Shown: positions 4,228 to 42,267 of the stretch, in pieces
Layout of the letters: each line of letters opens with the position of its first letter
Numbering within the stretch: the stretch's first letter is position 1
From: a virus
Direction: 5' to 3' (one strand)
DNA: 64,000 bases
Virus record (IMG/VR): IMGVR_UViG_3300045988_085140
Program-made: the position numbers and the translations under genes
Notes under the pieces: model-generated
The model's input: the letters and a program-made list of their open reading frames with translations, nothing else
The model's database searches: none
Told to the model about the DNA's origin: nothing

Positions 4228-4263
4228 ATTTCTTGCTAATTCGCCAAATTTTTAGCAAGAAAT
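4228..4263. promoter_or_regulatory. Perfect 12-bp inverted repeat, candidate operator in the CI/Cro intergenic region
   Basis: ATTTCTTGCTAA-N12-TTAGCAAGAAAT, between divergent genes 3959..4156 and 4312..4713. Confidence 0.5.
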
Positions 4264-4311
4264 TATTAACCGATTATGAATAATTAAGTATGATTTATAA
4301 ATGTAAAATGT

Positions 4312-5711: not shown

Positions 5712-6869
5712 TTACTTATCGAAGAACTTATCAATCAGCCCCATCGCCTCATCCTTCTTCTTATCCACAATCTTAGCATATATCTCAGTAGTGGATATTC
5801 GGGAGTGACCGAGTAGCTTGCTGGTGGTGTATATGTCGGCTCCAAGCGTGAGCATCATGGTGGCGAAGGTGTGCCGAGCGGTATGGAAGGATATATTCTT
5901 CTTGATTCCTGCTGCCTTCGCCCATACCTTAATATGATAGTTGATGTTTGGCTGCTGGCATAGTTCATAGAATACCAGTTCGTCATCCGTCTTTTCAGGC
6001 AACCATTTCATCGCCTCGTTGGATAGCTGATAGCTTACTACTCGCTGAGTCTTCTCCATCGTTTTGGTCAGGCGGTAGGATGATGTTCCGTCAGTATTCT
6101 TCACCTCTTCAATATCGCTCCATTTCAGCTTCCTGATGTCCGAGATACGTAGACCCGAAAAACATGAGAACATAAATGCTTGTTTGGTATGCTTGCTGTA
6201 GCATTCTGTTGCAGCCAGTTTCTTCACCTCCTCAATATCTAGGTATACTCGCTCGCTCTCAGGAGACCCGAACTTATAGCTTGGGTCTATGAGCGATAGG
6301 GGATTCATCTGAATGATGCCATCACGGACAGCCTGATTCAGAACCGTACCAAAGCAAGTAAGGTACACCTTCTTGGTTATTTCGCTGAACGGCTGCCCAC
6401 CTCTCTTGGTGGCAGTCCTCAGATACTCTATCCACTTCATGCAAAACTTCTTGTCTATGTCGACCATCTTGGTAGACTCGCCACAAAACTTCATGATATG
6501 CTTCTTCACATTCTCAATGGTCTTGCTGGATTCGTCCGACCTACTTGCCTTCTGCTTGGCAACCTTCACGATGTCTAGCCATTCTACCAAGCGCATGTTC
6601 TTGTTACTGCTGAATACTCCTGCCTTTCGGTTCTTCAAGTCGAGAACCCTCTGAGCCTTGATGATATTCGCACTAGCCATCGTCTCAGCATTCTTCGCCC
6701 TCGCCTTCGCTCTTTCTCTGCCAACCTCTGGGATGAGGTATAGCTTTAGAAATTCATAACTCCTCTTTCCGTCCATATAGATGTCCAGATAGATACTCTT
6801 GTTTCCGTTGGCAAGTTCCTTGAATCTGATAGTGACTGGCTCCTTTTCGATTGTTTTCTTCCTTCCCAT
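5712..6869 (-). CDS. int: Tyrosine recombinase / phage integrase
   Basis: C-terminal HTARHTFATMMLTLGADIYTTSKLLGHSRISTTEIYA (R..H-x-x-R..Y catalytic set). Start set at MGRKK; the ORF track extends to 6923. Confidence 0.9.
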   Translation of the reverse strand: MGRKKTIEKEPVTIRFKELANGNKSIYLDIYMDGKRSYEFLKLYLIPEVGRERAKARAKNAETMASANIIKAQRVLDLKNRKAGVFSSNKNMRLVEWLDIVKVAKQKASRSDESSKTIENVKKHIMKFCGESTKMVDIDKKFCMKWIEYLRTATKRGGQPFSEITKKVYLTCFGTVLNQAVRDGIIQMNPLSLIDPSYKFGSPESERVYLDIEEVKKLAATECYSKHTKQAFMFSCFSGLRISDIRKLKWSDIEEVKNTDGTSSYRLTKTMEKTQRVVSYQLSNEAMKWLPEKTDDELVFYELCQQPNINYHIKVWAKAAGIKKNISFHTARHTFATMMLTLGADIYTTSKLLGHSRISTTEIYAKIVDKKKDEAMGLIDKFFDK

Positions 6870-6905
6870 AAGCCTACATTTATTAATCTGCTGCAAAGAT
6901 AAGCA

Positions 6906-7253
6906 ATTTTTTGTTACTCGCAAATTTTCGGTAACAAAATAGTAACAAAACTACAACATATCTATTGTATACCTACCTGTCATGTATTATACGGATAATT
7001 ATTTTTTCGTATAAATAAAATGTTGATAACCAAGCAGGTAGGTGTATAATAGATATACAAAAGGAGTACTTTCACAAGCACTCCTTCTCATATTATACAA
7101 AAACATTATGAATGCTTATTTGAACCTTGTAACCTATTGATAGTCAATACTATTAGAAATGGTCTGTTTTTATCGAGTAACAAAATAGTAACATAAAAGA
7201 GTTAAAGAAACTAAATCGCTTGTTTTGCTCGCTACAAAGGTAACAAAATAAAC
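6906..7253. repeat. attP-like region with GTAACAAAA arm-type repeats
   Basis: 17-bp perfect direct repeat GTAACAAAATAGTAACA at 6931-6947 and 7177-7193. GGTAACAAAATA at 7239-7250. Inverted copy TTTTGTTACTCG at 6909-6920 versus CGAGTAACAAAA at 7174-7185. Confidence 0.5.
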
Positions 7254-7375
7254 TTGAATGCCCAATATACTTTAACCTACTTTAACTTTGTAATCATTTG
7301 TATATCTACTGCACACCAAGCGTATACCTAAAATCTGAATATCTTACAGATTAACGAATTACATATTTTTTCACA

Positions 7376-7407
7376 TTTGGTAGTTTCAAAAATTATTTCT
7401 ATCTTTG
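7376..7407 (+). promoter_or_regulatory. Canonical Bacteroidota promoter (-33 TTTG / -7 TAtcTTTG)
   Basis: TTTG at 7376-7379, 20-nt spacer, TATCTTTG at 7400-7407. Confidence 0.55.
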
Positions 7408-7474
7408 CATCGTCAATGTTGCAGATTGGCTGGATAAAGTAGTCCTCCTTTCAAGGCGTAAGCCTACAAGATAT

Positions 7475-7520
7475 GAGTCCCTTAGTTCTTGCTGCAACCA
7501 AGACTTTAGGACTCTTTTTT
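7475..7520 (+). terminator. Promoter-proximal intrinsic terminator / attenuator directly before the ATG at 7526
   Basis: GAGTCCCTTAGTTCTTG-CTGCAAC-CAAGACTTTAGGACTC followed by T6. Confidence 0.55.
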
Positions 7521-7525
7521 ATGTT

Positions 7526-8329
7526 ATGCAGTATATAAATGTAACCATAGAACTTTTGAAAGCATACTCTTCAAGTAAGAGCATGAAGGAACTTCTTGCT
7601 GTTGCTATTTGGATAAAGATGCAGCATAGCAATTCTGTAATGTGGAATGTTACGGAATACAAATTGAGGAAAGGATTACATATTGGTAAACCAAAAGCAG
7701 AAAGACTTATTCAAGACATGAAAGATGATGCTTTGTTTTCGGTAGACGGAAACAAGGTTATTGTCTCTTCGTTCCGTGACAATACGATAAAGTGGACTCG
7801 AAAGGGTCGTGAGTATCGTGGTGCTATGGTATGTAAGTTTGAGGTAAAAGATTATACCTTGAAGGAATTATTCAATCTTATAAACGAGAAACTTTTTGAA
7901 TTTCAGATTTGTGCTGCCGAGCATAAGGACTGTTGTATGAAAGCACCTGAGGGTGAAAAGGTCGGTGCCAAAGGTAAAGCTATCACAATAAAGCAATTTC
8001 AGAAGGCTCTCAATACAAGTAGTAGTTCTGTTTCGAGAATAAAGAAAAGACTTATTGCCAGTGGTAAGATTAATTCTACTCTTGCCGAGAAACATTCCTT
8101 TGACATCAGGAATGAGGAAGAAACGAAGAGAACTTTGTTGAGAACGAGAAAATCCAAGGCAGACTTTATTGTCGGCACTCTTGGATTTGTAGTCCTTGCT
8201 TGTACTTACTCTATCGCTAATAGGGCGGTGACCGATGGATTCAGGCATCTTATCTATGGCAAGCAGAGTGAAAAGGTTATTCAGAGAGACATGAGTATTG
8301 GAGGAATCCCTGACGGATTTTTCTGTTAA
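7526..8329 (+). CDS. Hypothetical protein with a probable HTH
   Basis: 267 aa. ITIKQFQKALNTSSSSVSRIKKRLIASGKIN looks like an HTH. No family recognised. Confidence 0.4.
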   Translation: MQYINVTIELLKAYSSSKSMKELLAVAIWIKMQHSNSVMWNVTEYKLRKGLHIGKPKAERLIQDMKDDALFSVDGNKVIVSSFRDNTIKWTRKGREYRGAMVCKFEVKDYTLKELFNLINEKLFEFQICAAEHKDCCMKAPEGEKVGAKGKAITIKQFQKALNTSSSSVSRIKKRLIASGKINSTLAEKHSFDIRNEEETKRTLLRTRKSKADFIVGTLGFVVLACTYSIANRAVTDGFRHLIYGKQSEKVIQRDMSIGGIPDGFFC

Positions 8330-8394
8330 TTGCTTAGATGTTTGTTTTGGTAACCTACATTGAAAGAAAGAAAATATATAATAAACAATTAGTT

Positions 8395-9099
8395 ATGGAT
8401 AAACCTACTTATGAGAAGTTCAAGAGATATTGTATATCGAAGAACTATGGAACAGATGAGTACATCAAGAGTCTTTATGATTATCTTGATGAAAGGAAGT
8501 GGAAGAAGGCAAATGGAGTGGAACCAGTAAACTGGATGATTCTCACAGATGCTAACTTTGGTGTGTTCAACGCTAAAGGTAAATTCTCTAGAGCAATCAG
8601 AGAAAAATTGGCTGAAAAGTCGGAAAATTTCGACCCAGTTGAGCCATTTCCTGATAATGGCATGAACTATGTGGCTTATACGGATGGAAGTTGTGACAAC
8701 CGTTCCAAGTATAAGGCAGGAGGTTCTGCTTACATCGTATTGAAGGATGGAGAGATTGTCAAGATGAAGAATCATGGCAGACTACAGACAACAAACAATC
8801 GTATGGAATTGCTTGCTATCATTAGTGCAGCTAAGTCTTGTCCAGATGGTGCTTATCTTGATATTTATACGGATAGCCAGTACTGCATACTTGTGTTGGG
8901 GAAGAGTACTCCACCAATGAAGAATCCTGACCTCTATGAGTTGTACAAGAAATGCTCTGCTCATTTGGCAGGAGTTCGTTTTCACTGGGTGAAAGGTCAC
9001 AATGGTGACAAGTACAACGAAATGGTTGATAGCTTGGCTTATGGCGCATATTGCGACATTTGTGAACAATATAACATCGAGAAATCGAAAAGACATTAA
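8395..9099 (+). CDS. rnh: RNase H (type 1) domain fused to an unknown N-terminal domain of about 100 aa
   Basis: DEDD set: YTDGS, NNRMELLA, IYTDSQY, GHNGDKYNEMVD. Start placed at MDKPTYEK. Confidence 0.8.
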   Translation: MDKPTYEKFKRYCISKNYGTDEYIKSLYDYLDERKWKKANGVEPVNWMILTDANFGVFNAKGKFSRAIREKLAEKSENFDPVEPFPDNGMNYVAYTDGSCDNRSKYKAGGSAYIVLKDGEIVKMKNHGRLQTTNNRMELLAIISAAKSCPDGAYLDIYTDSQYCILVLGKSTPPMKNPDLYELYKKCSAHLAGVRFHWVKGHNGDKYNEMVDSLAYGAYCDICEQYNIEKSKRH

Positions 9100-9110
9100 A
9101 ATTTTGGCTT

Positions 9111-9491
9111 ATGGAACTTGATATGTTGATTAGAAGTGCCCTGAGTGATGCCCAGTGGTTAATTGCTAAGGGTGGCACGGATAGGGCAGAAGTCCTGAAT
9201 CGTGTGCTGGGTAAGATTGATAATGTCCTGAAAGAACTGGATGGGGTAGAACTCATTGGCCTCAACAAGGTGTGGCATCAGGCGAAAGATGTTATGCCAC
9301 CAAGAATTTATGGCGGCAATCATGCAGACTTGCTGTGTGTGCATCAGTTCAAGCCTACTTCTCATCCTCATCTTACTCACGAAGAGAACTGCCCTGAGTT
9401 TGAGGAGTATCTTAAAGCGAGTCCGAATGACTGGTGGTGTAGAACTGGGGATTTGTTGAAGAAGGAACATCGTGAACTTTATTGGAGATAG
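9111..9491 (+). CDS. Hypothetical protein
   Basis: 126-aa ORF in an operon context. No motif recognised. Confidence 0.45.
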   Translation: MELDMLIRSALSDAQWLIAKGGTDRAEVLNRVLGKIDNVLKELDGVELIGLNKVWHQAKDVMPPRIYGGNHADLLCVHQFKPTSHPHLTHEENCPEFEEYLKASPNDWWCRTGDLLKKEHRELYWR

Positions 9492-9516
9492 ATATATTAA
9501 TTTAAATTATTTAATT

Positions 9517-10086
9517 ATGTGTGAAAAAACAAGTAGTATGTCAATGTATATTGGCACAAAAGTAGTTATGGCAATGCCTATGACTATGACAGAAGCACAG
9601 AAGGTGCTAGGTAGAGAAATTAAGCCAGCAACCGTTGAGGAAGATGGCTACTTAGTAGGGTATAAGAACGGATATACGTCTTGGTCTCCTAAGAGTGTGT
9701 TTGATGATGCTTATCGTAAACTTGTCGGAATGGATTTTGGTAAGGTTATTGAGGCATTGAAGTCTGGTCTTGCGGTAAGACGCAAGGGATGGAATGGCAA
9801 AGGTATGTTTGTAGTCAAACAGATTCCTTCTCATATTGAAGGCGGCATCATTCCTACGATGCAGTCGCTGCCTCAGTCAGCTAAGGATATTCTGCTGAGC
9901 CGTGAGAATGCGCACATTGATTATACCAATCAGATGTTGATTATCAATCCTGATGGTCGTGCAGATTCTTGGGTTCCTTCTTCATCTGATGTTTTTGCTG
10001 AGGACTGGGAGCTTGTTGTAACCGAAGATGGTTGGGATTCTTTCCCTAATTGTGCAGTTCCTTCTGATTCTCCTATTGAAGATTAG
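9517..10086 (+). CDS. DUF2829 (Tad2-like) domain protein with a conserved phage N-terminal domain
   Basis: ALKSGLAVRRKGWNGKGMFV...WVPSSSDVFAEDWELV matches the DUF2829 consensus. N-terminal YIGTKVV.A.PMT...GY.SWSPKSVFDDAY. Start could be 9517 or 9538. Confidence 0.75.
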   Translation: MCEKTSSMSMYIGTKVVMAMPMTMTEAQKVLGREIKPATVEEDGYLVGYKNGYTSWSPKSVFDDAYRKLVGMDFGKVIEALKSGLAVRRKGWNGKGMFVVKQIPSHIEGGIIPTMQSLPQSAKDILLSRENAHIDYTNQMLIINPDGRADSWVPSSSDVFAEDWELVVTEDGWDSFPNCAVPSDSPIED

Positions 10087-10088
10087 TA

Positions 10089-10370
10089 ATGACTAGTTCA
10101 TCTGCTGAATACTACAGAACGCACCCATCAGCTAGGGCACGGAAGGCTTCCTACGATACTAATTTCGAGTCTTCTCCTGCTCAGAAGGCTAAGCGTAGGG
10201 AGTTGGCTCGTTACAACGCTGCCCACGATAAGAAGTATGGGGCAGCTTCTCGCAAGGGTATGGATGCTAGCCATACGAAATCAGGAATTAGGTATAAACC
10301 ATCATCGGTGAATCGTGGTTCCAAGACGGATATGGCTGGGGATAGAAGAGCGAGAGGTGGTCGCTGTTAG
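10089..10370 (+). CDS. Small basic hypothetical protein
   Basis: 93 aa, Arg/Lys-rich. Last gene before the terminator. Confidence 0.45.
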   Translation: MTSSSAEYYRTHPSARARKASYDTNFESSPAQKAKRRELARYNAAHDKKYGAASRKGMDASHTKSGIRYKPSSVNRGSKTDMAGDRRARGGRC

Positions 10371-10814: not shown

Positions 10815-10858
10815 GCAAAGATAGTAATTTGTTGGCAAACGGAAACTTTATCCGTTAA
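10815..10858 (-). promoter_or_regulatory. Late-type promoter P1: GTTAACGGATAAAG-N22-TATCTTTG
   Basis: Read on the minus strand. Exact 22-nt spacing, as in the five other copies. Confidence 0.6.
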
Positions 10859-10870
10859 CTTACCACCTAA

Positions 10871-10914
10871 ATAAACGGATAAAATACGAATCTCGGATGG
10901 TATCTGTATCTTTG
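10871..10914 (+). promoter_or_regulatory. Late-type promoter P2: ATAAACGGATAAAA-N22-TATCTTTG
   Basis: Drives the 10946..27923 operon. Back-to-back with P1. Confidence 0.6.
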
Positions 10915-10945
10915 TACCATTATTAATAATTAAATTTTCATATAT

Positions 10946-12796: not shown

Positions 12797-12824
12797 CAGA
12801 ATTGGTAACAAGAATTTGGTAACA
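12791..12824 (+). repeat. Three direct TGGTAACA repeats at the junction before the giant ORF
   Basis: Copies at 12791, 12803 and 12817. The first two contain in-frame TAA stops of the upstream gene. Confidence 0.5.
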
Positions 12825-12836
12825 AACATATATATC

Positions 12837-15800
12837 ATGGCAGAAAGACCATTATACACTTTATACAAGAATCTGAAAGCACAGAACTATGATGTGCCTG
12901 ATGATTACAATAAGTTTGAGAGTGCTCTGACAAGAGACGGAAAAGGTGGTGCGGATAACAGACATGCTATCTACGAGAACTTGAAGGCTCAGAACTTTGA
13001 TGTTCCATCAACTTATGAGCGTTTTTACTCTGCACTCTTTGAACCACGTAGTAAGACTTCATCTAGAGCGAAGGGCGGTAGTGTTCCTATGAGTGCTGCT
13101 GACCGTGCTCGTTTCTCTGCTGGGGCAGCAGCTATCTCGGCTAGTGCTCAGCAGACAATGAACAATGCTGGCAGATACAACAGACTGAAACAACGCAAGC
13201 AGAAACAGCAGAAGGATTTCGGTCGTGTGAACTTGGGTACACATCAGACTCCTTATGGTGGTGATGCAAACAATGTTGTGAAGGATGATTTTGCTTACAA
13301 TCCTGAGACTGGCAAGACTGGCGCATACGTTACATCGGACAATGAGAATGTTTATTCTCTTCCTGAAGCTGAGCAGAAACAAGCTATTCTTGACCAGCAA
13401 AACAATGCATATCAGGAAGCGGTAGATACTGGTGAGATACCATCTGCCTTTGATGTTCGTGACAAGAAAGGTAACTATGACTTGCAGGATAACATCGGCA
13501 AGAATGGAACCTACCTTACTGAGGAAGGTGCTCAAAAGCAGTTTGACAAGAAATTGGCTGATGCCTATGCCCGAAAGAAGGAGATTGAAGCTCTTATCGC
13601 TGAGGATAATCGCCAACACGGAAATCCTTTGCTCTCTTATGGTGCTAGTATCGGTGCAAGTAACGGAAGAACTGCTGAGCAGAGTGACTATAGAAATAAG
13701 TTGGCAACCTCTCTTTCTCTGGTTACTGAGCAGATTGGAGCGCTTGAAGCGGTGAAACAATATCCTACAAGTAGCTGGGGTGAGGATGCCTTGAAGGCTC
13801 TTGACAATACTGCATTTACTGCAAAAACATGGGATTTCGGTCTGACTGACTTCGCTATCATGGGGCAGATGGAACGTATCAAGACAAAGATGGATAACAA
13901 TATTCCTCTCTCTGGTTCTGATAAGATGCTCCTGAAGAGTAAACTTGGTGCGGATGCTGCTACGGCTATCGAAGATGAGAAGATGGGTAACGTCTATCGT
14001 TGGACGAAAATTGCAGGGAAGAGTCTCCCATTTATGGCTGACTTCTTCCTGACTGGCGGTTATGGTGGTATTACCAAGGGCATCAGTCGTGGAGCCTTGA
14101 AATTTGCTGCTAAACGTGGCATGGGCAAGGTGAGTGCTGCCATCTTGAAGAATACTGGTATCGTGGCTGGCGATGTTATCGGCTCGTATGCAATGGCTGG
14201 AACTGAGCAAGCGTTGAAGACTGGTGCTGACATCATGCAGCGACATCTTGGTAATCTGTATCAGGATGAGAAGGGTGATTATAAGTTTGGTACTTTCGAT
14301 GAGAATGGAAATCTTCTGCATGAGGGTGGTGAGTCTATTGGTACTGCTCTCTATAAGGGTATGACCTCTGCTATGGTAGAGAACTATACAGAAAAACTTT
14401 TCGGTCACAACTATGGTATCAAGAAGGGTGCTGTCAACTTCATGGAGAAACATGGTATGAATGCTTCTGCTGAGTTCTTCAAGAATATCGGCAAGAGTGG
14501 ATGGTACACCAATTCCAAGAAGTGGATGGAGAAGTTCGGTATCAATGGTTTCGCTGAGGAAGTGATGGAGGAGGAAATTGGTATTCCTCTTCATGCCCTG
14601 CTGGATGGTGAAGGTAAGGTGAGCGACCTTCTTGATGCTAAGCAGCAACTCGACATCATCGGTGGTATGGCTATCTCGGTCGGTTCTATGTATGCGATGG
14701 GTGCTGGCTCCCGACCAGTAAAAGGTATCTACAATCGTGCTCAGTACTACCGATTCCGCAACAAGGTGAACGTGGCTGATAGTGATGCAGAGAACCTTAT
14801 GGGCGATAACTGGGCAGACATCAAGGATAAGATAGACAACGCAACTAATGAGCAGATGGGTAGTGTGCTGGCTGATATTCTCAGACAGAGAGATACCATG
14901 ACCAAGGAACAGATTAATGCTGCTGTTAACTATGGTGTAAACCTGATGAAGATGCGTGGCTACAATATTGCCAAGACTGCTGAAATGAATGCCAAGGAGA
15001 TTACCAACGAACCAACAACACCTGAGGAGCAGCATCAGGCAGATATTGACAACGCTTATTCTGAGGGGCATGATGCTGATGATGCAGATAAGCATGATAT
15101 TCAGATTCAGCAGGAAGACCAGATGAAGACTCTTGCAGCAGCATTGGGTATCTCTGAGCAGCAGTTATCAGCCATGAGCGATGAGGAACTGGAATCCCTG
15201 ACTGGGCAGGATGATAAACTTGACCAAGCTATCTATGACTACCAGTTGTCTTCTGCCCGATACCAAGGTGTGGTTGATGATGCACAAGATAAGGTTGACC
15301 TCGCTGCACATCAGGCAGAACAGAGAGTTGATATGTACACAGACCAGAGTCGTGGTTCTGTTCGTAACGCTACTATCAAAGCATCAGGCGGCTTGGAAGA
15401 CTATGGTGTATATATTATCAGTGGTAATATTGCTACTCATGATGATGGCTCCATTGATGTAAGCAATAGCGATGATATGATTCTCTATTATGACCCGACA
15501 ACCAATAGCGTTGAACATGCTGATGCGTTGATGGTCGCTGAACTGGGTGAAGAACTACCTGCTGATGATGTGAAGGCTCAGGCGGTATCTGATGCTAAAG
15601 AGAATGCTATCAAGGAAGTGGCTGGCATCATTGATGGAACCGTTGAAGTTGGCTCCCAGTTCAATGTGACTGATACTGATGGTACTGAACATACCTATGA
15701 AGTGTTGGCTGACTATGGTGATGGTACTGCTGCTATTTCTATAGATGGTAACGTGGTGGAGAATCCTTATTCGCTTGCAGACTTGCAGCAGATGAAAGAC

Positions 15801-18800
15801 TTGGAAGACCAGAAGAGACTGGAAGCTGCCAAGGCTGAGCGTGAGCAGATGGAGAAAGAACGTGCTGCTCAGCAGAATCAGGAGACTGAGCAGACTCAAC
15901 CTTCATTTGACTTCAATCAGATTCTCAATGATAATGGTAACGTGGTGCTCGTTGATGTGCTCGACAAGGATGGTAATACCAAATACCCTGACTCTAGATT
16001 ATTCCTTATCCGTGATGCTGGTGCTAAAGCTAAGGTAGTTGAGTTGAAGAGTGATGGTACTCTTGTTCCTCATGCTGTGAACAAAGAAGATGTGGCTACA
16101 ATCTCTTCTATGTCGCTCGATGAATACAAACAAGCTATGCCTGAATCCTCAATGATTGAGGATAATAGTGGAGAGAATAGAGGTGAGATAGAGGTGGAAG
16201 CTCCGACAATAGAGGGCGAGGTCGCGGCTCCTGTTAATGAGGTCGCGGCTCCTGAATCTGCTGAGACTCCTGCAACTGAGCAGACTCCTGCTGCTCCTGC
16301 CATTACTCTTGAAGATGGAACCATCGTGCCTATGCTGGAGGATGGCAATCCTGACTTCTCGAAGCTGACTGCCGCACAGACTGCTGAGCTATATGATAAT
16401 CAGTTTGGTGAGGATGCAGATAGTATCGTATCTGGATATGTGTCTGATGCAAAGAAGGCACTCGACAAGGCTAGCAACATGACCGTGAAGGGCAAGACTT
16501 TCGTGGAACAGAAGGCTGCTAAGGATGCCAAGGAGAAGGCTATTGCTGATGCTAAGGCGGCTTATGACTCTGCTATCGCTATCCGTGATGCTTATAATGA
16601 GCGACAACTTGCCAAGGTGGAAGATACTGCTGAGGGTAGAAAGGAACTCATTGAGAAGGCAAGAAGAAAGTTCGCTCGCTTGAAGAGTGCGGTGAAGGAT
16701 GATGCTGAGGCGGTGGCTCAAATCTATAAGGAGACGGTTGGAACTCTGCTGCATCGTCTGTATGATGGTACTGGCATTGACGTGACAGATACGATTCCGC
16801 TTACTGCCGAGGAGTATGTGGCTAGTAACCTCGGTGCTCACTCTCTCAACTATGAGGGAACAGAGACAAGTAAGGGCGTTAAGCAGGAGACTGGATTGAG
16901 TAGAGAAGACTTTGCCAAGACTCAGTTGCTCGCTGCTGATGGCAATGGAACTACTATTGATGAGCTCGTTCATAGTCTGTGGGAGAATCGTCCATCCAAC
17001 CTTGAATCACTAGACACTCAGGATATTCGTAATGCTCTTATCAGTGTACTCAATAGCGGTTTCAAGGCATCGGAAGCAAGGAATTTTGTTGAAAATATTC
17101 GCATTGCTCAGGCAGAGAACATACTTGAAGAGCAGAAACGTGCTCAGGAGAATGCAGCCTATGCTGAGCAGCACAAGGCTGAGCAAGAGGCCGAGTTGAA
17201 GGCGAAGTCGGATGAAAAGGCTGAGTTGAAGGCGAAGTCAGAAGCGAAGTCGGATAATGAATCGGATAATAAATCTGATGATTTGTCTAATGAAACGGAT
17301 AATGATAAGATAAATGACAATATAAATGATAATATAAATGTTCCTGAGGATGCTACTGATGAGAATCCTTTAGGCGCAGAGCGTGATGAATCTGACCTTC
17401 CTTTCTCTACCAAGGAGAATGGCAAGCAGCAGACAACTGCCGAGCGTGCTGCTGACGTAGAGAAGAATAAGGTGGATGATATGAAGGTCGTTGACAATAT
17501 CGTGGGCGAGAAGACTCGCAAGGCTTTCGAGAGACTGGCTAAGATGATGGGTGCTAACATTCAATGGCAGTACTCAGACAAGTTGGGTAACGGCTGGATT
17601 CAGGAGACTACGGATGCCGATGGCAACGTTCATCGTACAATTTTCATCACTCTTGACTCTTCTATCACGGAAGGTGCTCAGTTTATCTTCGGTCACGAAA
17701 TGACTCACCAAATCAAGAACCTGAACCCTGCTGCATACAATGAGTTGACTCAGCTTGTGCTTGATACCTATGGCTCTGATGCCTTCGACAAGGCGGTAGA
17801 TGAGACTATGCAGAGATATTCCGATGCAGGATTCTCTGGACGTGCTAGAGATTACTATGCTGAGGAGGTTGTTGCTGATGCGGTAGGCGAAATGATTCGT
17901 GACCTCAACTTGGCTCATACTCTCGCCATGAAGATGTCTCATCCTCTGCTCGCTGCTATCCATGAGATATTACAGAAGATTAAGTTGGCATTCTTTGGTA
18001 CTGAGTATAGCGATGTGACCAAGAACATCATCCGCTCCATTGAACAAGCATACGTGAAGACTGCCAATGGTCAGGTGACAAACTCCGAGACTGGCGAAGA
18101 TGTTTCATTCTCTCTACGTCAAAAGCCTGAACCTAAGAAGAAGGGTATCGGATATAAGGTATTTGTGCTAAAGGATGGTAAACTCTATCCTCCGATGGTA
18201 GCGAACCCTGACGGTGCAGAAACCCCAGTCGGTGTGTGGCTCGATGCTGATGCGGCTCCTATTGCTGGAGAAAGCAAGACTGGCAGACCTCAGGTTAAGC
18301 AGGGCGGTAAGGGAACACAAGGGGGTAGCGGTAAGCTAGCCTATAGACCAGGCTGGCATCTTGGTGTCGTGCCTTACGCTATCCAGTTCAATCGCAAGGA
18401 TGCTGAGGGCAACAAGACTCTCTTCCCAAAGAACTTCGTTTTCGCTGAGGTGGAGTATGCTGCTGATGTAGATTATCAGGAGGAAGCTCGCCAAGAGGGT
18501 ATCAATCCATCGGGCAAGTATCAGCATTCATTGGCTGGCTTGAAACATCTGCCTACTGATGGATATTATATGTATCGTACCAACCCGAACCCTGAGACTG
18601 ACCCTTGGGTGATTACTGGTGCGATGAAGGTGAACCGTATCTTGACCAGAGCAGAGCAAGCGGAACTTGTGAAGAACGCTGGTCGTGAACCTCAGCAGAT
18701 TCAGGAGGGCGATATTGTTACTGATGATGTCGTGAACAGCATCAATCAGGAGATAGCTGATGCTCCTAAGTTCTCGTTGAAGGATAATCAGGAGAATCCT

Positions 18801-21800
18801 CTGAATCAGGATGGTACTTTGAAACTGGATAAGATTAAGTCCGTTGATGAATTGACGGATGAAGACTTCACTAGTGCCTTTCGTAATGTAGAGCTTCCTG
18901 CTATACCAAAGAATGTGGATGCTGCTATAGGGGCAAACGGAAAGCCTATTGTTATCAAGAAGAATATTTTTGAGAAGAATTGGAATGCTCACAAGTTTAC
19001 TCCTGCTGAAAGCAAAAAGGTATTGAATGATGCTTTATACAATACTGATTTAGTAAGGCACACACAGCCAACAAAGAAGCCTAACCATTGGGTTGCAATC
19101 AAGTTGGATGATAAAAGTCCTATCACCGTGTTGGAAGTAAACGACAACAAGAATAATGTTGAAGTTGTTGGTTGGTATACACTTGATGAAAGAAATCTTG
19201 GGAGAATAAAAAGACAAGCTGAACGAAATGGCGGCGAACTCATTATGTTAACTCCTAAAGATGATAAGGTGGAAAGCCTTTCCACTCCTCCGCTCAGCTC
19301 TGCTGCAAATATAATCAATTCTTTTGAAACTACCAAGGAAAATGGCGAAAAAGTTGATGTTGAGGGCACAAAATTCTCATTGAAAGATGAAGAATACCTG
19401 AAAGCGGTGGAAGATGGCAATATGGAAAAGGCTCAGAAGATGGTGAATGAAGCTGCTGATGCTGCTGGCTATTCTACAGATTCCAGCTATCAAGGTACAT
19501 CTGCCTTCAATGGTGCTGCACCTTGGGGTAATGGTTACTTCTTGACAAAGGACGAACGCAAGGAGGCATGGGATAATGGCGAGTTTGAAGGTGAATCAAC
19601 TCTTGGTGATTATATCAATGATGATATTGATGGCGGCAACTTGGAGGAGTTGACTAATGCCGCATCTTATCGTGCAGCTGACCCTATGCGTAAGGAGGCT
19701 ATTGATAACGTTCGTAATGCTATTCAGAAGAAAGCTAAGACTATTACAATGTATCGTAGTGTTCCTTCTGATGTGAAGGAAGGTTCTTTCCGAAATGGTG
19801 ACTGGGTTACTCCAAGTCGTGCTTATGCTGTTGATAATGCAAAATTGCATGGATGGGGTGACGATTACAACATCATCGAACAAAAAGTTCCTGTTGATGA
19901 TGTGTGGTTTGATGGCAACGATATTGCAGAATGGGGCTATGGTCGTGAGGAAGATTATATCAATGATACAGACTTCGCCTATAAGAACAGCAAGAACAAC
20001 AAAAAGTTGCTTGATGCCGTTACCTATGATGATAATGGTAATGTGATTCCTTTGTCTCAGAGATTCAATGAGAAGAATAAGGATGTGCGTTTCTCTTTGA
20101 AGGATGAAAAAACTCTTGCAGGAGTGCATAACATTACTGAGGAGAAACTGAGAAAGGCTTTGAAGCTGGGTGGCTTTGCCAATCCTTCTTTAGCTGTAAT
20201 TGATACCAACAAGACTGGTCACGACAACTTTGGAGAGATTTCCTTCATCGCTCCTTCTGCCCTTTTGGATAAGCGTACTGGCAATACTGGTGGTACATGG
20301 ATAACTGATGCCTATACTCAGCGTTATCCTTCCGTAGAGCGAGAAATGAGCGAAAAGGGGTATCGGAAGTTTGAAGACTGGGTTGATAGCCTTGATTACC
20401 CAAGTGGAGCTAAGGCTGAGATTGAGAGACAGGCAAAGGATGCCCTAAGTGACAATAATGCTCCTGCTTGGGAGTTGATGTACTTGAAGGAAAAGGGTAT
20501 TGATATTAAGGAGTATGATTCAAGAATTGATTATCGCTGGAAAGAGATTATCAGTGACCATCCTACTGCCGAGGATATTTTGAATAGTATGAAGACTGAC
20601 CCTGAACTGAATGAAAAGGTTACAAGTCTGGCTAAGCATGCCATCATCCATCCTACTTGGGAAAAGGTTTCTTTGGAGGTGAGAAGAAAGATGTATAAGG
20701 AGACTGGCGTTAAGGCTAGCCCTATCAATCCACAAGTAAGAAAACAGACTAAGGAAATCTTTGAGCGTGACTATGCGCCAACCTTGCTTAACAAGGACGG
20801 CAGTCCAAGAAAAAAAGATGTGAAGAAGGTTGTTGAGGATATTGTGAAGGAACATAAAGATACCAAGAAGTATGACTTCTATCTGTCTAAGGTGAAGGCT
20901 AGTAATTACGTCAACAAGAATGGTCTTTATGATGATTACATCAGATGGCAGGAGAACAAACTGGATGAGTTCGGAACGAAGAACCGTATCTTCCGTGGCT
21001 ATACTAGGGATGGTTCCCGAAAGTATGTGCCTGAGACTCTTGAAAATGTTTCAAAGGCTATGAGGGAAGAAGCAGATGGGCAGACCAATGGAAGCGAATA
21101 TACCTCGTTTGGTAGCTTTATCGCAAAGTTGGCTAGTCGTGTTGATTCTACAGACGAAATGCGTGCCAACAAGGATAAGTTGTCTTCTAATAAGGATAAG
21201 GAAGAATTTTACGAGAAATGGAGTGATGTTTATTATGACCTTGCCAAGTTCTTGTATAATGATGTGTTCTATGGTGAGCAGAGACTTCACGATATTGTAT
21301 TGCAGTCTGACCCTAAGAAGTATGCCAAGAAAGAATATGGCATTACCCTTACTCCTACCTTCATGAAGAAACTGGATGCCTTGAAGAATGCAGTACAGAC
21401 AGAGTTGAAGAGTGCGTACTTTGAGACTAAGTACAACAGACCTCTCCGTCTAAACGAGTTTGCTGCTGCTGTGGTTCCTGATAACTTGGGCAAAGATGTA
21501 CGCAAGGGTATAGAGAATGCTGGCTTACCAATGTATGACTACGACCCGAATAAGGAAGGTGACCGCAGTCGTGCTTTCAATGAAGCTATCAATAGTAGCG
21601 ACAATATCCGGTTCTCTCTCGCTGGTGTGCGTGGTGCGGCTGCTGCTGACAAGGCAGAGGAGCGTAATGCTCGTATGGATAATCTCTCCGTGGCTCGCAA
21701 GATGGAAGAAGAGAAGAAAGATGCCAAGGCTATCAAGATGGCTACTGGATGGGAGCGTGGTGCTGATGGCAAGTGGAGATACGAAATGCCTGATGCCAAG

Positions 21801-24800
21801 ATAAAGGACACGATGGACGTAGGCGGTGGACACATCGTTAAGCGTTACGAGGATGATATGCTCTGGAATGGCGGCAAACTATTTGATGTGATTGATGCAC
21901 CTGAATTATTTAAGGCTTATCCTCAGTTGAAGGGTGTTCGTATTGATACGGATGCCATTATGAACGATATGCCTTCACATGGTGAATATGATTCAAAAAC
22001 CAACACCATAACCATTCATGCTGATGAGTTGAAATATATGAATGACATATTGAATCACGAGATTCAGCATGCTATTCAAGGTATTGAGGGATTTGCCACT
22101 GGAGGTAGTCCTACAACTATTAGAGGTGAAGTCAAGAAGAGGTTTAATGAGGTCACAAAACAGATTAAGCAGCTACGAGCAGAAGGTAAGGAAGATGAGG
22201 CGAAGGCTCTCATAGAGAAGAACAGAGGTCTTTATGATGCCTACATGAAGAATGATGATTTCAATAGCTACAAGTCACTTGCTGGCGAGGTGGAGGCAAG
22301 AAATGTGCAGGAAAGAATGAACATGACTCCTGAGGAGAGAAGAAAAACTCTCGCTGAATCTACTGAGGACGTGGCTCGTAAAGACCAGATTTTCTTGGGT
22401 GTGGGTGATGTGTCCTTCTCCCTCCGTGATATGGCTGACGGAAAGGAGAGTGGGGCGGCAGATATGGCTGAGGATTTGAAGAGTCTGAACACTCCTGATG
22501 AGGTGGATGATGCTATCAAGACTGCTATTGAGGATATGCCGAGCGGCTGGAAGATGGCTAACAAGAAGATGATTCATATTGCTCAGGCTCTGGGCGAGAA
22601 TCGCAAGGCAGAGATTGCTGGCGAGGAACCTAAATTCTCCCTGAAGGATGGCACTCTCATTAAGGCTGGAACATACTTTAGCGGTGGCGGTCTTGTTGAG
22701 GAAGGCTTGAAGGGTATCATCGACCCAGTGGTGGCAGTGGAGTATGATGAGAAGATAAGCGGCGTATATCGCAACAATTTCGGGCAGCACATCGTTACTG
22801 CTGATGTTCGTGATGTTGACCCTAAGGAGTTGGTTAAGCAGATAGATGGCGAGGTGGAGTACTTCCATGCCAGCCCAGTCTGCAAGAACTACTCTCAGGC
22901 AAAGAGTAACCATGCTGAGGTGGAACTTGACAAGGAGACTGCTGCTAGTACTGCCGAGTTTATCAATGCTATTAAGCCAAAGGTTGTGACCATTGAGAAC
23001 GTGAAGGGATATAAGGATTCCGAAGCGATGAAGACTATCACCGATGCTCTGGATGCCAACGGCTATACTTGGGATGCAGATGTGTATAATGCTGCTGACT
23101 ATGGCGGCTACACAAACCGAGAGAGATTGATTGTCCGTGCGGTTCGTGATGGTAAACTTCCTGCCAAGCCTGAGAAGATGGCACGCAAGAGCGGATGGTA
23201 TGAAGCTGTGGCTGATATTATCCCGACCTTGACAGAGAAGAAGAATGGTGTGGCTCCTTGGATGGATATTCGCTTGAAGGCTGATGGCATTGACTGGAGA
23301 AACATTGACAAGCCATTGTATGTGATGGGTAGTGCCTATGCTGACGGCAAGGTCCCTCATGCCTTCGCTGATGAACTGCTGCCAACACTCAGAACGAAGA
23401 GTGGTGATGTGATTGTGATGCCTGATGGTAAGGTATATCGTGCCATGGGAAGAGTGCTCGCAAGAGTATCAGGAGTGAGCGATGATTACAAGATGCCATT
23501 CTCCGAGAACCTGAGCCATATCATCATCGGCAACGGAATCCCTACCCAGTTGACGGAACATGTGATTGCTCCTCTGCTTACTGGCTCTGACCCTAAGTTT
23601 AGCATCCGTACCTATCATGGTACTGGTGCTAGCTTTGACAAGTTCGATTTCAGCCACATGGGTGAAGGCGAAGGTTCACAAGCATTTGGATGGGGTGGTT
23701 ATGTTACTAACTCTAAGGATATTGCTGAGGACTACACAAGACGTGCCAAGATAAGGAAAGATAATGACGGTTTTGAATTTGTGACAGATATGTCTGCCAA
23801 TAACAAAGATATGGTAAGACAATATATCTATAAATATAAAGATGTAAACAAGGGATTGGATGCTATGAGAAAAGACCTTTCTTCTGCTCTAGAAATGTTC
23901 CCTGATGATGATGATTTAAAGGAACTTAGCAATATTCTTGCAAAGAAGAATGAGGAAATAGCTGTTCCTGATAATATTGCTTATCTTTATGATGTGGATA
24001 TTCCTGATGATAATGGAGATTATCTTGACTGGGAGAATAAACTGAAAAAATCTCATTTGAATAAGGTAAATAAGGAGTTGGTTAGAATAGGCAAGGAGCC
24101 TATTGAGACCATTTATCCAAGTCGTGTTGATGGTAAGGTAAGAGGTCAAGACTTGTATGATGAACTTTCCTCTATGCTTGGTTCTAAAGAAGCAGCTAGT
24201 AAGTTGTTAAGTGATGCTGGCTTTGTTGGAATCAAGTACCCTGCTGGAACCATTTATGGCGGTGCAGAGGAAGGCGATTACAACTATGTGATATTCGATG
24301 AGACCAATGCCAATATCGTGGGTAATACCCGATTCTCCTTGCGCTATGACCAGTTTGAGCACGACCTGAACCAGTGGAAGAAGGATAATAATCTGCCAAA
24401 GGATGCTCAGAGGCCAACCATCCCACAACGCAACGCTGGTGAGAGTGCCGTTGACTTCCTGAGGAGAGTGGACGAGTACCGCAAACAGATGGCTCTGTGG
24501 AAGACTGCTCCAACCTACGAGCAGCATCTTCTAAGTGATGATACTGCCCTTGGAGAGTTCAACCGAGAGTTGCAGCGTGGTTCTGTTCTGAAACGTATCG
24601 CCTTCCAAGATAGTATGCTGGCTATCCGCAAGGCTCAGGAAGCTATCATGAAGGAAGTGGGTGTTGACCGTCTGAACATGGCTGAGGATGCCTATACTGC
24701 CGAGAACCGCAGTCACGGCAAGGGAAAGAACGAGTTTGAGGAATACAATAATGAGTTCTTGCAGCCATTGAGAAAGGCTTATCATCAGATGAAGAAGATA

Positions 24801-27800
24801 CTGGGTGACAGCTATGATAATGTCCGTATCTACATGATGGCTAAGCATGGCTTGGAGCGTGATTCTCAGATGGCTTTCAAAAAGTCTCTGGAAGCTGACT
24901 ATGAGGACGTGGCTCAGAGAAGTGCAGCATATAAGGCTTACAAAGGCGATATGAACCGTATCATCAATGATAGCGACTTGGAGTTTGGTAGAGTAGACTT
25001 CACTACTTGGAGACAGAGAGACAATGCACTCAGGGCGAAATATTCTCCATCTTATATGAACTATCGCTACGACAAGAATGGTATTGCCTACGATTACTCA
25101 GGTTTGTCTGCTCTCTTTGACGGCTCAGACTTTGAGGAAGCTGCCTACAAACTGGTAAAGGATATTGAGGATAAGTATGTAACCGAGACTCACAACCTCT
25201 GGGATGCAACGAATGCGGCTACCAAGAAGATTCTCCGTGATGGCTATAAGGCTGGCATGATGAGCAAAGATACTTATCAGTATGTGCGTGATATGTATAG
25301 CCATTATATTCCTCTCCGTGGCTGGTATGGCACTACTGCCGACCAAGTATGGGACTATATTGGTGGTGGAAAGGGTGCGTTCAATCAGACCTTGAAGAAG
25401 GCACACGGACGAACCTCTATCGCTGATGACCCTATCGCCTACATCGAGAATATGGCAGAGAGTGGAATCCTGCTGAACAACAAGAACTGGGTGAAACAAC
25501 ACCTGATGCTCTTGGCTCAGAATCATCCAACTTCCCTGCTGACCCTGAGCAAGGCTTGGTATGTGAAGAGTACGGATGCCAACGGCAACGAGGAGTGGAT
25601 TCCTGCTACACCTCAGATTACTTCTCAGATGGATAGCAATCAGGTGAAGGCTGCCATTGATGCTTTCGAGAAGAAGATGGAGCAGATGGCTCAGGCTGGC
25701 GATGCTACTCAGAAGAGAGACGGATTGAACATAGCCTATCCTCAGACTCACAGCGAGGAGAGAGAACATGAGGTGCGAGTGATGAAGGATGGCGAGGAAT
25801 ATGTTATCTATGTGAATGGTGACCCTCAGTTGGCTCAGGCGATGAATAATACCAGAGCACACCGAGTAAGAGAGATTCAGAGCGGTAAACTTGATAGGGC
25901 TGCTGCTTGGTTGGGCAGAAAGATGGCTGCTGCCTATACCAGTCTTTCACCTCTCTTCATTCCTTCCAACTACTTCCGAGACCTGACCATGACGCTGGCA
26001 TCTACAGCTATCCGTGAGGATGCAAAGTACAACTATCTGCTCAGAAAGAATCTGGCTACCTCTTGGAATCTCGGATTCATGCTGAGAGATTTTCAGAACG
26101 GAAAGTTGAGAGATAAGGTAAACAACGGAAACGCTACACCAAAGGAACAGATGTTCTATGACTTCATGATGAATGGTGGTGAAACTGGCTTTGTCTCTTC
26201 GCTTGACGTGGAAGACTTGAAGAAGAAATTCAAGAACGACTTGAAGGATTTGGATAGATGGAAGGCGAACCCAGTAAAGGTAGGACATACCATTATGGAT
26301 AGCATTGAGTTCCTGAACAGAGCAATTGAGGATAGTAACCGATTTGCGGTTTACATGACCTCCATTCAATATGGGCGTTCTATTGATGAGGCTGTGAATG
26401 ATGCCAAGAATGTAACATTGAACTTCAACCGCAAGGGTACTGGCGAATATGGCTGGCAGATGATTAGAAACCTCTATCTCTTCATCAACCCAGCAGTACA
26501 GAGTTTGCAGACTTTGGGTGCGCTTGCTAAGCATCATCCATTCAAGTTCACGGCTGTTACTGCATCGTGGTTGGCGAGTGGTGTACTGGTTCCTATCGTT
26601 AACGCTGCCCTGATGAGTATGTTGGGTGGTGATGATGATAAGGATAAGTACTGGCAGTTCACCAAGTGGGATAGAAGAAACAACCTGATTATGTGGGTTC
26701 CGTTTACTCATGAGTATGTGAAGATTCCGCTTGCTCAGGAGTTCCGTGCCTTCTATGGAATAGGCGATATGATTGCATCTAAGATGATGGGTGGCGAGTT
26801 GGCTGAGGAAAGTTGGAGCCAGTATGCAGAAGATTTGCTCGGTCAGGTAGTGGATATGCTTCCGCTTGACCCTACTGGCTATGATGGCAATATTGCTGTC
26901 AGTCTGATGCCGAATGCTATTCGACCAGTCTTTGAGTTGGCTTTCAATGTTGACTTCACTGGCAAGCCATTATTCAAGGACACAGAGTACAACAAGTATG
27001 ACCCTAACTTTACCAAGGCATACGTGGGCACTCCTGATTGGTTGGTTCGTGCATCAAGGATGGTTAACTCAATCGGAAACGACTATCCAGATGTGCAGCA
27101 GAACAGCATTGATGCTTTCGGTGACCCAAGATACAATCTGAATAACCCTGCTGTGGTTGACCATGTATTGTCTTCTTATCTCGGTGGTGCTTACACCATG
27201 GGCAGTCAGGTGCTCGGTTTGCTTACCAAGTCGCTCAATGACCCGAAGGAAATTAAGGTGGCTGATATTCCATTATTCAGTAAGTTCGTCAGCAATCCTG
27301 ATGATAGACCGGTTACTAAGAAACAAGGTGATGAGTTCTGGAATATGAAGGAGAACCACGACCGTGCAGCCAATACCCTGAGCAAGTTGAAGAAACAAGC
27401 TAAGGTGGATGGCGATTACTCAATGCTGGAGCGGTTCTACGGCTCAGAGGAGTATAAGAAGTACAAGCAGGATGATGTGAAGGTGAAGAAGTATGAGGAA
27501 GACAAGAAGAAGGAACGTGCTGAGGAGAGTGGGGAGGAGTATAGACCTCACAAGTTGAATGCCGAGGATATATACAAGGCTCATGCTACTCCGAAGGATG
27601 ATTTCGAGGACTTGAAGCTGAAACAACTCTACACCAAACTGAACGGATTCAAGACTTCCTATGACCTCTTGGTTGATACGGCTCCTAGTCAGAGCGATGG
27701 CTACTACAACAACAACAAGGCTGCCATTGATGCCATTGACGAGATTTCCCTTGACAAGCAGGAGATTTCCGAGTTGAAGAAAGGTTTCTTGGATGATGGC

Positions 27801-35214: not shown

Positions 35215-36216
35215 TTATTTAGCTTTTATTGTATAAGTATTGTCACCAGCAATAAGTGGGTCTGAATTATAATAATATAATGCACCAATAATCGTTTCGT
35301 GGAAATCAGCTTCTATGTTTCCTTGAATGAATTGTAATGGAGTGTCTGAAATAAACCAAACTACATCGTTTTCATCTGTTGTAGTAACCGTTATCGTCTG
35401 ATTGACCAAAGAAGTATTACTTCCGTTCAGTACAGATAGGTCTAATTCGTTTGCATCTGATAAAGATGATGCACCATACATATTCTTTGCACCGATTGTA
35501 ACAAAAGCAGTTGCTTTATATATTTTTCCGTTCATCGTGACTATGATATGGAAAGCGTATGAACCTACTTGTGAACGTGAAACATTGGCTGACGTATCTG
35601 TTGTCTTAGGTTCAATGACATTACTTCCGTCAATAATCTTAATATTGTCGGGAATAGTATCAATACCATTCTTCCTAATTTGCCATGAGAGTTTAATGGT
35701 GTGTTCTGTTCCATCATAAGCAATAACAGAAGGTGACGCTTCCAGATATACATTTGTATCGTCCACATCAGCATCATTCTGATTGTTCAGTTCTATCCAG
35801 TACTTCGCATTGTACATACCTCCCATTTCACCCTCTACGATACCGAGAGGAATATGTGACTTTCCATTTCGCTCCACGATACGGAAAAGGCGGTGCTCGA
35901 TGCTACAGATGTCGTTTCCGTTGTACTTGCCACGAATGGTAATGCCATATAACCCTTCCTCTAGAAATGGTGGGAACTTGACACAAATATCACTCGGCTC
36001 TACTTCACTATTATTTGTTCCGCTCTGAACAAAAGGCATTTTTGCTACACACTCTCCAAAGGCATCAGTAAGGTGTACTTCTAGATTACTGATGGCAGCC
36101 ACGTCAATATCTTCCAACATCTGCTTATTCTTGCTGATGTAGGCTTTCTGAAGCTTGATGAAAAGGTCGAAGCTGTTACCTTTAACAATCTTATAAATAT
36201 CCATATACGTATACAT
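35215..36216 (-). CDS. Tail-associated protein (Ig-like/beta-rich)
   Basis: 333 aa. First gene behind late promoter P3. Confidence 0.4.
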   Translation of the reverse strand: MYTYMDIYKIVKGNSFDLFIKLQKAYISKNKQMLEDIDVAAISNLEVHLTDAFGECVAKMPFVQSGTNNSEVEPSDICVKFPPFLEEGLYGITIRGKYNGNDICSIEHRLFRIVERNGKSHIPLGIVEGEMGGMYNAKYWIELNNQNDADVDDTNVYLEASPSVIAYDGTEHTIKLSWQIRKNGIDTIPDNIKIIDGSNVIEPKTTDTSANVSRSQVGSYAFHIIVTMNGKIYKATAFVTIGAKNMYGASSLSDANELDLSVLNGSNTSLVNQTITVTTTDENDVVWFISDTPLQFIQGNIEADFHETIIGALYYYNSDPLIAGDNTYTIKAK

Positions 36217-36229
36217 TATTAATAATAGA

Positions 36230-36273
36230 CAAAGATAGGCAGAAATTTCTCCACCTATCTTTTATCCGTTTAT
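36230..36273 (-). promoter_or_regulatory. Late-type promoter P3: ATAAACGGATAAAA-N22-TATCTTTG
   Basis: Read on the minus strand. 13 nt separate the box from the ATG at 36216. Confidence 0.6.
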
Positions 36274-39643: not shown

Positions 39644-39651
39644 CAAATATA
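39644..39651 (-). promoter_or_regulatory. -7 box TATATTTG for the terminase operon
   Basis: Lies 11 nt upstream of the ATG at 39632. The upstream AATCGGATG resembles the late element but sits 3 nt closer. Confidence 0.4.
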
Positions 39652-39689
39652 CAAAAAAGTATTGAATTAGTCGCATCCGATTAGATTAA

Positions 39690-39733
39690 ATTAACGGATA
39701 AAAGATGAAAATCGGAAAAAAGCATTAATTTTG
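39690..39733 (+). promoter_or_regulatory. Late-type promoter P4: ATTAACGGATAAAA-N22-TAATTTTG
   Basis: 31 nt from the box to the ATG at 39765, the same distance as P2. Confidence 0.6.
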
Positions 39734-42238: not shown

Positions 42239-42267
42239 AGTAACACTTATATAAATAAGGTATAATC

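Follow-up and report, generated by a model that had tools for sequence, protein, structure and literature searches.

Two 14-base boxes stand back to back at positions 10815–10914 of the window, by which we mean the whole analysed stretch of 64,000 nucleotides from IMG/VR virus record IMGVR_UViG_3300045988_085140, and each of them precedes a -7 element of the host type. What kind of promoter do they mark, how widely is the design used in this genome and its relatives, and what reads the box? The window covers nearly the whole genome (~65 kb) of a temperate podovirus-like phage and opens inside the early operon. This is a gut phage, and its host is Prevotella/Segatella. It encodes a tyrosine integrase (5712–6923), a divergent CI-like/Cro-like pair, a Rha/ANT protein, an HTH_17 protein, ERF and a PD-(D/E)XK nuclease; a Pfam scan of the window identified a T7 gp14-like internal virion protein, an SU10-type major capsid protein and a P22-type portal. 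About 1.5 kb is absent between the window ends and, judging from relatives, would encode DUF3127, DUF1367 and a 255-aa protein. Close kin are found among Prevotella/Segatella copri prophages and in many IMG/VR contigs of 65–70 kb. The nearest relatives in culture are the Bacteroides phages BS-TP4, BKO1-TP3 and BF1-TP2, which come from a study that did not analyse promoters (PMC12694917). The capsid protein of the phage family has 547 matches in IMG/VR, and phages of this family abound in Prevotella, Segatella and Bacteroides of human and rumen origin.

The pattern RTWAACGGATAAWR-N22-TANNTTTG, in which a box of 14 bases ends exactly 22 bp upstream of a host-type -7 element TAnnTTTG, has exactly six matches in the window and none in 100 dinucleotide-preserving shuffles. 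A spacing scan of the window gave the six matches at N22 and none at sixteen other spacings. Each copy faces its downstream operon:

P1, 10816–10859, minus strand: box 10859->10846 (GTTAACGGATAAAG), 22-nt spacer, -7 box 10823->10816 (TATCTTTG); operon of one 102-aa gene (10796->10488), DUF5681-like
P2, 10871–10914, plus strand: box 10871–10884 (ATAAACGGATAAAA), -7 box 10907–10914; operon of the T7 gp14-like protein, a 395-aa protein, a 5035-aa polyvalent protein and further genes to ~32193
P3, 36230–36273, minus strand: box 36273->36260, -7 box 36237->36230; operon of low-GC tail-fibre/virion-protein genes (36204->32272)
P4, 39690–39733, plus strand: box 39690–39703, -7 box 39726–39733 (TAATTTTG); operon of scaffold, SU10-type major capsid protein, portal and then others (39765–46236)
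P5, 46225–46268, plus strand: box 46225–46238, -7 box 46261–46268; lysis cassette (46299–48558) with the endolysin at 46564–47112
P6, 52850–52893, minus strand: box 52893->52880, -7 box 52857->52850; operon of 147-aa, 973-aa and 280-aa genes (52845->48657)

Six oriented copies of this arrangement were what the earlier note had read from the same DNA, and both their number and their absence from shuffled sequence bear it out. Its coordinates hold for P2 to P6, and for P1 they were one base off (10815–10858). The note had also placed the six sites in a single late class, and they do face virion, packaging and lysis operons. The product of the P1 gene, which resembles DUF5681 proteins, is more likely a small terminase than a late regulator.

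The -7 element TAnnTTTG is matched exactly at all six sites. None of them (0/6) has a TTTG at the -33 position, 19–21 nt upstream of the -7 element, in agreement with the claim that the host -33 element is replaced; the sole TTTG near the six sites lies in the P1 spacer, 12 nt from the -7 box. The early promoter at 7376–7407, which had been cited for its normal TTTG, is indeed canonical (TTTG at 7376–7379, N20, TATCTTTG at 7400–7407). The P1 and P2 boxes, described as back to back, are inverted, with 11 nt between them. The interval between -7 box and ATG is 19 nt at P1, 31 at P2, 25 at P3 (to the conserved second ATG at 36204), 31 at P4, 30 at P5 and 4 at P6, which reproduces the 31, 31 and 30 nt reported for P2, P4 and P5 and the leaderless look of P6.

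The core of the box, ACGGATAA, occurs 13 times in the window, compared with 1.24 expected copies. The seven copies outside the promoters (6991, 16006, 17295, 34821, 36848, 40485 and 41320) all lack both the TWAA prefix and a correctly placed -7 box. The earlier list of off-target copies was thus right in that none has a -7 box, and wrong in two positions: there is no copy at 8685, and the one given as 40494 is really at 40485.

A box without any role in transcription, be it a repeated binding site for a packaging, replication or partition protein or a remnant of duplicated DNA, is in our view highly improbable. Every copy is oriented with, and at a fixed distance from, a -7 box that precedes an operon start. 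The six 22-nt spacers are unrelated in sequence to one another, so the likeness is limited to the box and the -7 element, stopping at the box edges, and is not left over from a duplication. The position is also kept before orthologous operons in distant genomes, as described below.

Conservation was first assessed in ~80 close relatives fetched by capsid homology, in which the equivalents of P3, P4 and P5 have the exact architecture at syntenic places. Promoters were then found by flanking coding sequence alone, to keep the motif from biasing the choice. In this coding-anchored footprint the box core, the -7 box and the leader were each conserved in at least 95% of unique sequences, and the spacer of P4 and P5 just downstream of the box varied freely. 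As judged from these alignments, the box and the -7 element are under purifying selection and the spacer is under none. The CGG of the box is fixed in all six window promoters and throughout the ~80 relatives. A scan of IMG/VR with the correct spacing returned at least 119 stretches, and among the matches listed almost all belong to this phage family; an off-by-one control, with a spacer one base longer, gave 12 single matches among 2.9 million contigs.

The same architecture extends beyond the lineage. The pattern GTWAAnnRWTAAAn-N22-TAnnTTTG precedes the scaffold/capsid operon, and often the portal operon too, in relatives with 57–65% capsid identity from Bacteroides, Phocaeicola, Muribaculaceae, Rikenellaceae, Odoribacteraceae and Porphyromonadaceae. 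The family form of the box is GTWAAHRGATAAAM, at the same distance from the -7 element, and Bacteroides phage BS-TP4 is among the phages that have it. In 80 distant loci (1.37 Mb, both strands) the generic core combined with TAnnTTTG gave 54 unique cases at the exact spacing and none at sixteen other spacings. Box positions 7, 13 and 14 had been left free in the search pattern; position 7 turned out to be a purine in 62 of 62 cases, position 13 an A in 52 of 62, and position 14 a T in none of the 62. A C or T follows the -7 G in 60 of the 62 cases. From the family consensus, G-T-W-A-A-H-R-G-A-T-A-A-A-M, the window lineage departs mainly at position 7, where all six promoters have G in place of A; at position 6, which varies, they have C. 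Rumen Prevotellaceae relatives (L019–L042) were set aside as evidence on the scaffold promoter, since their gene order differs: the capsid gene lies inside a long operon and makes them uninformative on this point.

The element had been called phage-specific in the earlier note. This has to be withdrawn, as the architecture is shared across a broad Bacteroidales family of temperate podovirus-like phages. BS-TP4 itself has five promoters of the same design before the equivalent operons:

BS-TP4 P2-like promoter: box GTAAAAAGATAAAA
BS-TP4 portal promoter: box GTAAATAGTTAAAC
BS-TP4 scaffold promoter: box GTAAAAAGATAAAC
BS-TP4 lysis promoter: box GGAAAAAGATAACA
BS-TP4 P6-like promoter: GTAAAAAGTTAAAC-N22-TATTTTCG, then 4 nt and ATG

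A further site lies next to P4 on the opposite strand:

39644–39684, minus strand: possible seventh promoter, degenerate, with CTAATCGGATGCGA (39684->39671), a 19-nt spacer and TATATTTG (39651->39644)

Its -7 box is conserved in relatives, and its upstream box only partly. The operon of the 151-aa protein, a rhomboid protein and the large terminase begins 11 nt after the conserved TATATTTG, and there is no -33 TTTG at this site. In distant relatives an equivalent minus-strand -7 box lies just ~9–12 nt from the scaffold-promoter box, so that the divergent promoters of the scaffold operon and the 151-aa operon overlap there. Taken over these genomes, the element would define a complete late regulon, recognisable by computation, in a large family of Bacteroidales temperate phages.

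What the box could do depends on its place on the polymerase. With a start site assumed ~5 nt past the -7 G, it would extend from ~-48 to -35 with its centre near -41, which is the location of a class II activator site, and the leaders would be 20–27 nt long; the modal leader in B. thetaiotaomicron is 23 nt (PMC7366714). Relative to the canonical sigma-ABfr promoter (-33 TTTG / -7 TAnnTTTG), the -7 element is identical and the leaders are typical. The difference is upstream, where the -33 TTTG is missing and a 14-bp box is present instead, its 3' end overlapping the place where TTTG would be. The spacing differs as well: host promoters combine the -33 TTTG with a spacer of variable length (PMC7366714), whereas here it is invariant at 6 of 6 sites in the window and 54 of 54 in distant loci.

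We consider it probable that the six sites serve the host sigma-A RNA polymerase as late promoters and that it is helped by a phage-encoded activator or sigma-appropriating factor. Initiation at the sites, their late timing and a phage protein as the reader are what we infer from the arrangement of the DNA. In such a mechanism the late promoters would be weak on their own and hence silent in the lysogen. A phage protein from the early operon would bind the box in one orientation only and, in a class-II-like manner, would touch sigma region 4 and/or the alpha subunit, or else remodel sigma. Host RNA polymerase recruited in this way would turn on the virion, packaging and lysis operons together. 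Antitermination at a single promoter, as by lambda Q, is excluded by the six or seven dispersed promoters on both strands.

The candidate immunity operator of the phage is a perfect 11-bp inverted repeat, TTTCTTGCTAA-N12-TTAGCAAGAAA, at 4229–4262 between the Cro-like and CI-like genes, and it is not present at any late promoter. Because constitutive expression of holin, endolysin and virion genes would be intolerable in a prophage, and because this operator is absent, the late operons including the lysis cassette would need positive control.

The main competing explanation dispenses with a phage factor. The box could be an UP-element-like site or an alternative -33 contact, read by the Bacteroidales polymerase itself through the alpha C-terminal domain or sigma-A region 4; we think this rather unlikely. 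The promoters would then be intrinsically strong and lateness would have to come from elsewhere, for example from a repressor at a leader palindrome, from DNA replication or from copy number. UP elements are A/T-rich, lie at -40 to -60, are bound by the alpha C-terminal domain and stimulate transcription without other factors. Both the position and the A-richness of the box are compatible with such an element: the family consensus is A-rich (GTAAAAAGATAAAC) and, at ~-48 to -35, would occupy the place of a proximal UP element. Its consensus is nearly constant between phages of different Bacteroidales host families, so recognition by a conserved host polymerase would also fit, and domain scans of the window ORFs did not find a phage activator. 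In some distant genomes, moreover, box positions 6–7 are unlike between promoters of one genome, which weakens the case for a co-evolving reader.

There is also a precedent to consider. The Bacteroides phage promoter P_BfP1E6 is said to contain 'UP elements' and is constitutively active in B. thetaiotaomicron without phage proteins (bioRxiv 10.1101/2025.03.18.644028). The Bacteroides siphovirus B124-14 (L294), which is unrelated to this family, has five near-identical promoters on the minus strand at 37968, 24522, 6405, 4193 and 2836. In each of them a pair of GTTAAA repeats, spaced 11 bp apart, comes with a TTG at -33, TAnnTTTG and the conserved leader caaaaggaaacaaattactaaca, and the engineered 'B. 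fragilis phage promoter' may have been taken from them. With P_BfP1E6 and the B124-14 promoters, the sites described here share the consensus -7 box and conserved upstream GTTAA(A) elements. They differ from the B124-14 promoters in that the latter keep the -33 TTG and carry two GTTAAA repeats in another register, 6 bp out of step with our box. B124-14 contains 24 generic cores, and none of them has the box-N22-TAnnTTTG geometry.

A repressor acting at the leader would have a possible target in the following element, found after the -7 box of three promoters:

10919–10930 (P2), 36215–36226 (P3) and 46272–46283 (P5): leader palindrome ATTATTAATAAT, 3–4 nt after the -7 box

This perfect palindrome has three exact copies in the window, all at P2, P3 and P5. 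Relatives conserve it too, and it could act as an operator or in the initiation of translation. A copy with one mismatch, ATTATGAATAAT, is located at 4273–4284, just upstream of the CI-like gene. As a general source of late timing the palindrome falls short, since half of the six promoters lack it and none carries the candidate CI operator. Promoters driven by the host alone would also have to reconcile constitutive lysis and virion operons with the prophage state, a spacing invariant to the base with the variable -33/-7 spacers of the host (PMC7366714), and the CGG fixed throughout the window lineage with a general host contact. For these reasons host polymerase assisted by a phage factor remains our preferred reading.

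The factor might instead be a sigma. Phage-encoded sigma factors for late genes are known in SPO1 and T4, and the rigid two-block layout with an asymmetric upstream block resembles sigma-type recognition. The box would then be a -35-type element of an alternative sigma whose -10 specificity mimics that of the host. Pfam searches of ~60 window ORFs, supplemented by PHROGs and NCBIfam for subsets of these ORFs, found no sigma-70 (region 2 or 4), MotA/AsiA, Mor/C, Ogr/Delta or RinA/ArpU-type domain, and nothing sigma-like is expected in the missing ~1.5 kb, with its DUF3127, DUF1367 and 255-aa proteins. The downstream block is exactly the host consensus, whereas an alternative-sigma promoter is expected to have a -10 distinct from that of the primary sigma. 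In addition, 24 bp separate the end of the conserved box core from the -7 element, more than the 19–21 bp that sigma-A uses (Bayley et al. 2000, cited in PMC7366714). With none found among the ORFs searched and the downstream block of host type, a phage sigma is improbable.

Among known systems, the T4 middle promoter appears to be the functionally closest analogue of the host polymerase plus phage factor that we favour, followed by Mu Mor/C, P2 Ogr and MarA-type activators. At T4 middle promoters (MotA box and AsiA, sigma appropriation), as at the sites in question, an asymmetric phage box at tightly fixed spacing stands in for the -35 element, a host -10-type element is retained, and many dispersed promoters would make up one temporal class; the likeness is architectural only. 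In contrast to T4, the host is a member of the Bacteroidetes with sigma-ABfr, the phage is temperate, the box sequence is unrelated, and the box would lie farther upstream, with its centre at ~-41 rather than -30. Homologues of MotA and AsiA gave no Pfam match among the ~60 window ORFs and no PHROG match in the subsets searched.

In Mu (Mor/C) and the P2 family (Ogr/Delta), several late promoters with a poor -35 are activated through the host polymerase by small phage proteins that come from the ends of earlier operons. Mor/C sites are dyad-symmetric inverted repeats, and the Ogr site is TGT-N12-ACA with its dyad at -55. Mor binds at -43.5 (PMC4390567). The box, in contrast, is asymmetric, and no conserved Ogr-like dyad was found in the upstream flanks of the box (positions -14 to 0). 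Neither a Mor domain nor an Ogr_Delta zinc finger was detected in the window ORFs. Membership in either group therefore fails, the protein side being absent and the site symmetry different. Class II monomeric activators such as MarA, SoxS and Rob have an asymmetric site, strict in orientation and spacing, at or abutting the -35, as the box may have by analogy only; no AraC-type domain was found in the window. In temperate phages of Gram-positive bacteria, RinA, ArpU and LtrC are phage factors required for the late packaging, morphogenesis and lysis operons (PMC3753634, PMC3152322). In those phages a single late promoter usually lies upstream of terS, unlike the six or seven dispersed promoters here, and no RinA/ArpU/LtrC homologue was found in the window.

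A more specific and quite tentative version of the phage-factor reading is that the box is the dock of an undescribed, Bacteroidetes-specific system that redirects sigma-ABfr, in which a small conserved phage protein without known relatives replaces -33 recognition and imposes the 22-bp geometry. The 98-aa gp29-like protein and the 151-aa tandem three-helix protein are possible, still doubtful, readers in such a system, which, if real, would have arisen independently in abundant gut prophages as a functional counterpart of T4 MotA/AsiA. The genes considered in the search for a trans factor are the following:

53147–53443, minus strand: 98-aa protein, whose gene is the last conserved one of the early operon and lies directly upstream of P6; candidate late regulator
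53498–53689, minus strand: 63-aa Cys-rich protein (C-X19-C-X2-C-X14-C), adjoining the 98-aa gene with synteny conserved in relatives; second candidate
52402–52845, minus strand: 147-aa protein, first gene of P6, phrog_30264, conserved family-wide; third candidate
39177–39632, minus strand: 151-aa protein, divergent from P4, phrog_27246, conserved family-wide
12816–27923, plus strand: giant polyvalent protein of 5035 aa with LPD13, LPD23, LPD38, PBECR5 nuclease and C5 cytosine methylase domains

The first four are candidates by position and conservation only. The 98-aa protein is homologous to gp29 of BS-TP4 by profile comparison (hhalign probability 78%, E 1.9e-5), a relationship that BLASTP did not detect, and gp29 adjoins the P6-like promoter of BS-TP4, the same place as that of the 98-aa gene. 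The order 63-aa gene, 98-aa gene, P6, 147-aa gene recurs in diverged relatives. Neither the 98-aa nor the 63-aa protein has a match in PDB, Pfam or NCBIfam; the 63-aa protein also has no PHROG match and no detectable relationship to gp31 of BS-TP4.

The 147-aa gene is included because read-through from the early operon could reach it; once primed in this way it could amplify itself. Its AlphaFold model, built from too shallow an alignment, is unusable (pLDDT 39.7). A likeness to AbrB/MazE seen by eye was rejected, with no Pfam match even at E<=10 and an hhalign probability of 0.2%. The 151-aa protein might be either a fourth regulator candidate or a packaging protein. Its AlphaFold model is confident (pLDDT 90.6) and consists of two tandem helix-helix-strand-helix (three-helix) modules with a beta bridge between them. 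A Foldseek search of this model against PDB and BFVD gave no match at E <0.6 (best E 0.6), a profile search of PDB was empty, and the predicted fold may be previously undescribed. As a reader of the box it was tried and set aside: its putative recognition helices show no co-variation with the box centre, being nearly identical in one relative with CGG (L051) and another with TAA (L049).

The giant protein has an ADP-ribosyltransferase match below threshold, and a domain scan did not find an RNA polymerase domain in it. A 267-aa protein (7526–8329) with a weak MarR-like match was rejected as a family-wide factor, as BS-TP4 lacks the gene.

In the literature we found no paper describing the motif or the promoters of these phages, no account of how tailed phages of Bacteroidetes time their late genes, and no description of a phage-encoded activator or appropriator for the unusual primary sigma factor of these bacteria. 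The rigid geometry and the short defined box make the question of the reader directly testable by pull-downs, reporter assays and co-folding. If the promoters are factor-dependent, they would provide tightly off, strongly on, orthogonal switches for the engineering of Bacteroides and Prevotella.

Several observations concern individual promoters. The box of P6 overlaps the stop codon of the last early gene, and its mRNA is probably leaderless, because the ATG is exactly 4 nt after the -7 box. The 4-nt gap is found in the window lineage (52845; L015, L016, L295 and L296) and at gp28 of BS-TP4, and in the relative L299 the P6-equivalent leader is 16 nt. Leaders below 10 nt account for only ~3.7% in B. 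thetaiotaomicron (PMC7366714). An HNH endonuclease gene (52882–53235, minus strand) is situated between the 98-aa gene and P6, with its stop codon inside the P6 box. L295–L297 lack it at this place, which gives it the look of a mobile element inserted where the early and late regions meet. A 14-pair hairpin takes in the P3 spacer and -7 box (36231–36262, minus strand; AAAGATAGG...CCTATCTTT) just past the end of the upstream terminase operon. The relative L017 keeps a hairpin at the P3 position despite changed sequence, as judged by eye, and the hairpin may be terminator and promoter in one. In the window as a whole, intrinsic terminators are not enriched (14 compared with 13.3 expected).

The region 6924–10370 is a probable attP region, with arm-type GTAACAAAATAGTAACA repeats near 6930–6955, 7175–7200 and 7240. 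The canonical promoter at 7376–7407 precedes genes for the 267-aa protein, an RNase H-domain protein and a Tad2-like anti-Thoeris protein (9472–10086) together with small ORFs, and this cluster is missing from BS-TP4.

An Rfam scan of the window found nothing beyond one tRNA. This sole phage tRNA (2411–2486, minus strand; 53.8 bits) lies in the ORF-poor part of the early operon, 1650–2760. ARAGORN reports it as 'tRNA-???' with a four-base anticodon, tatg, and its anticodon arm, read as GAAGG-TTTATGAG-CCTTC, has an 8-nt loop.
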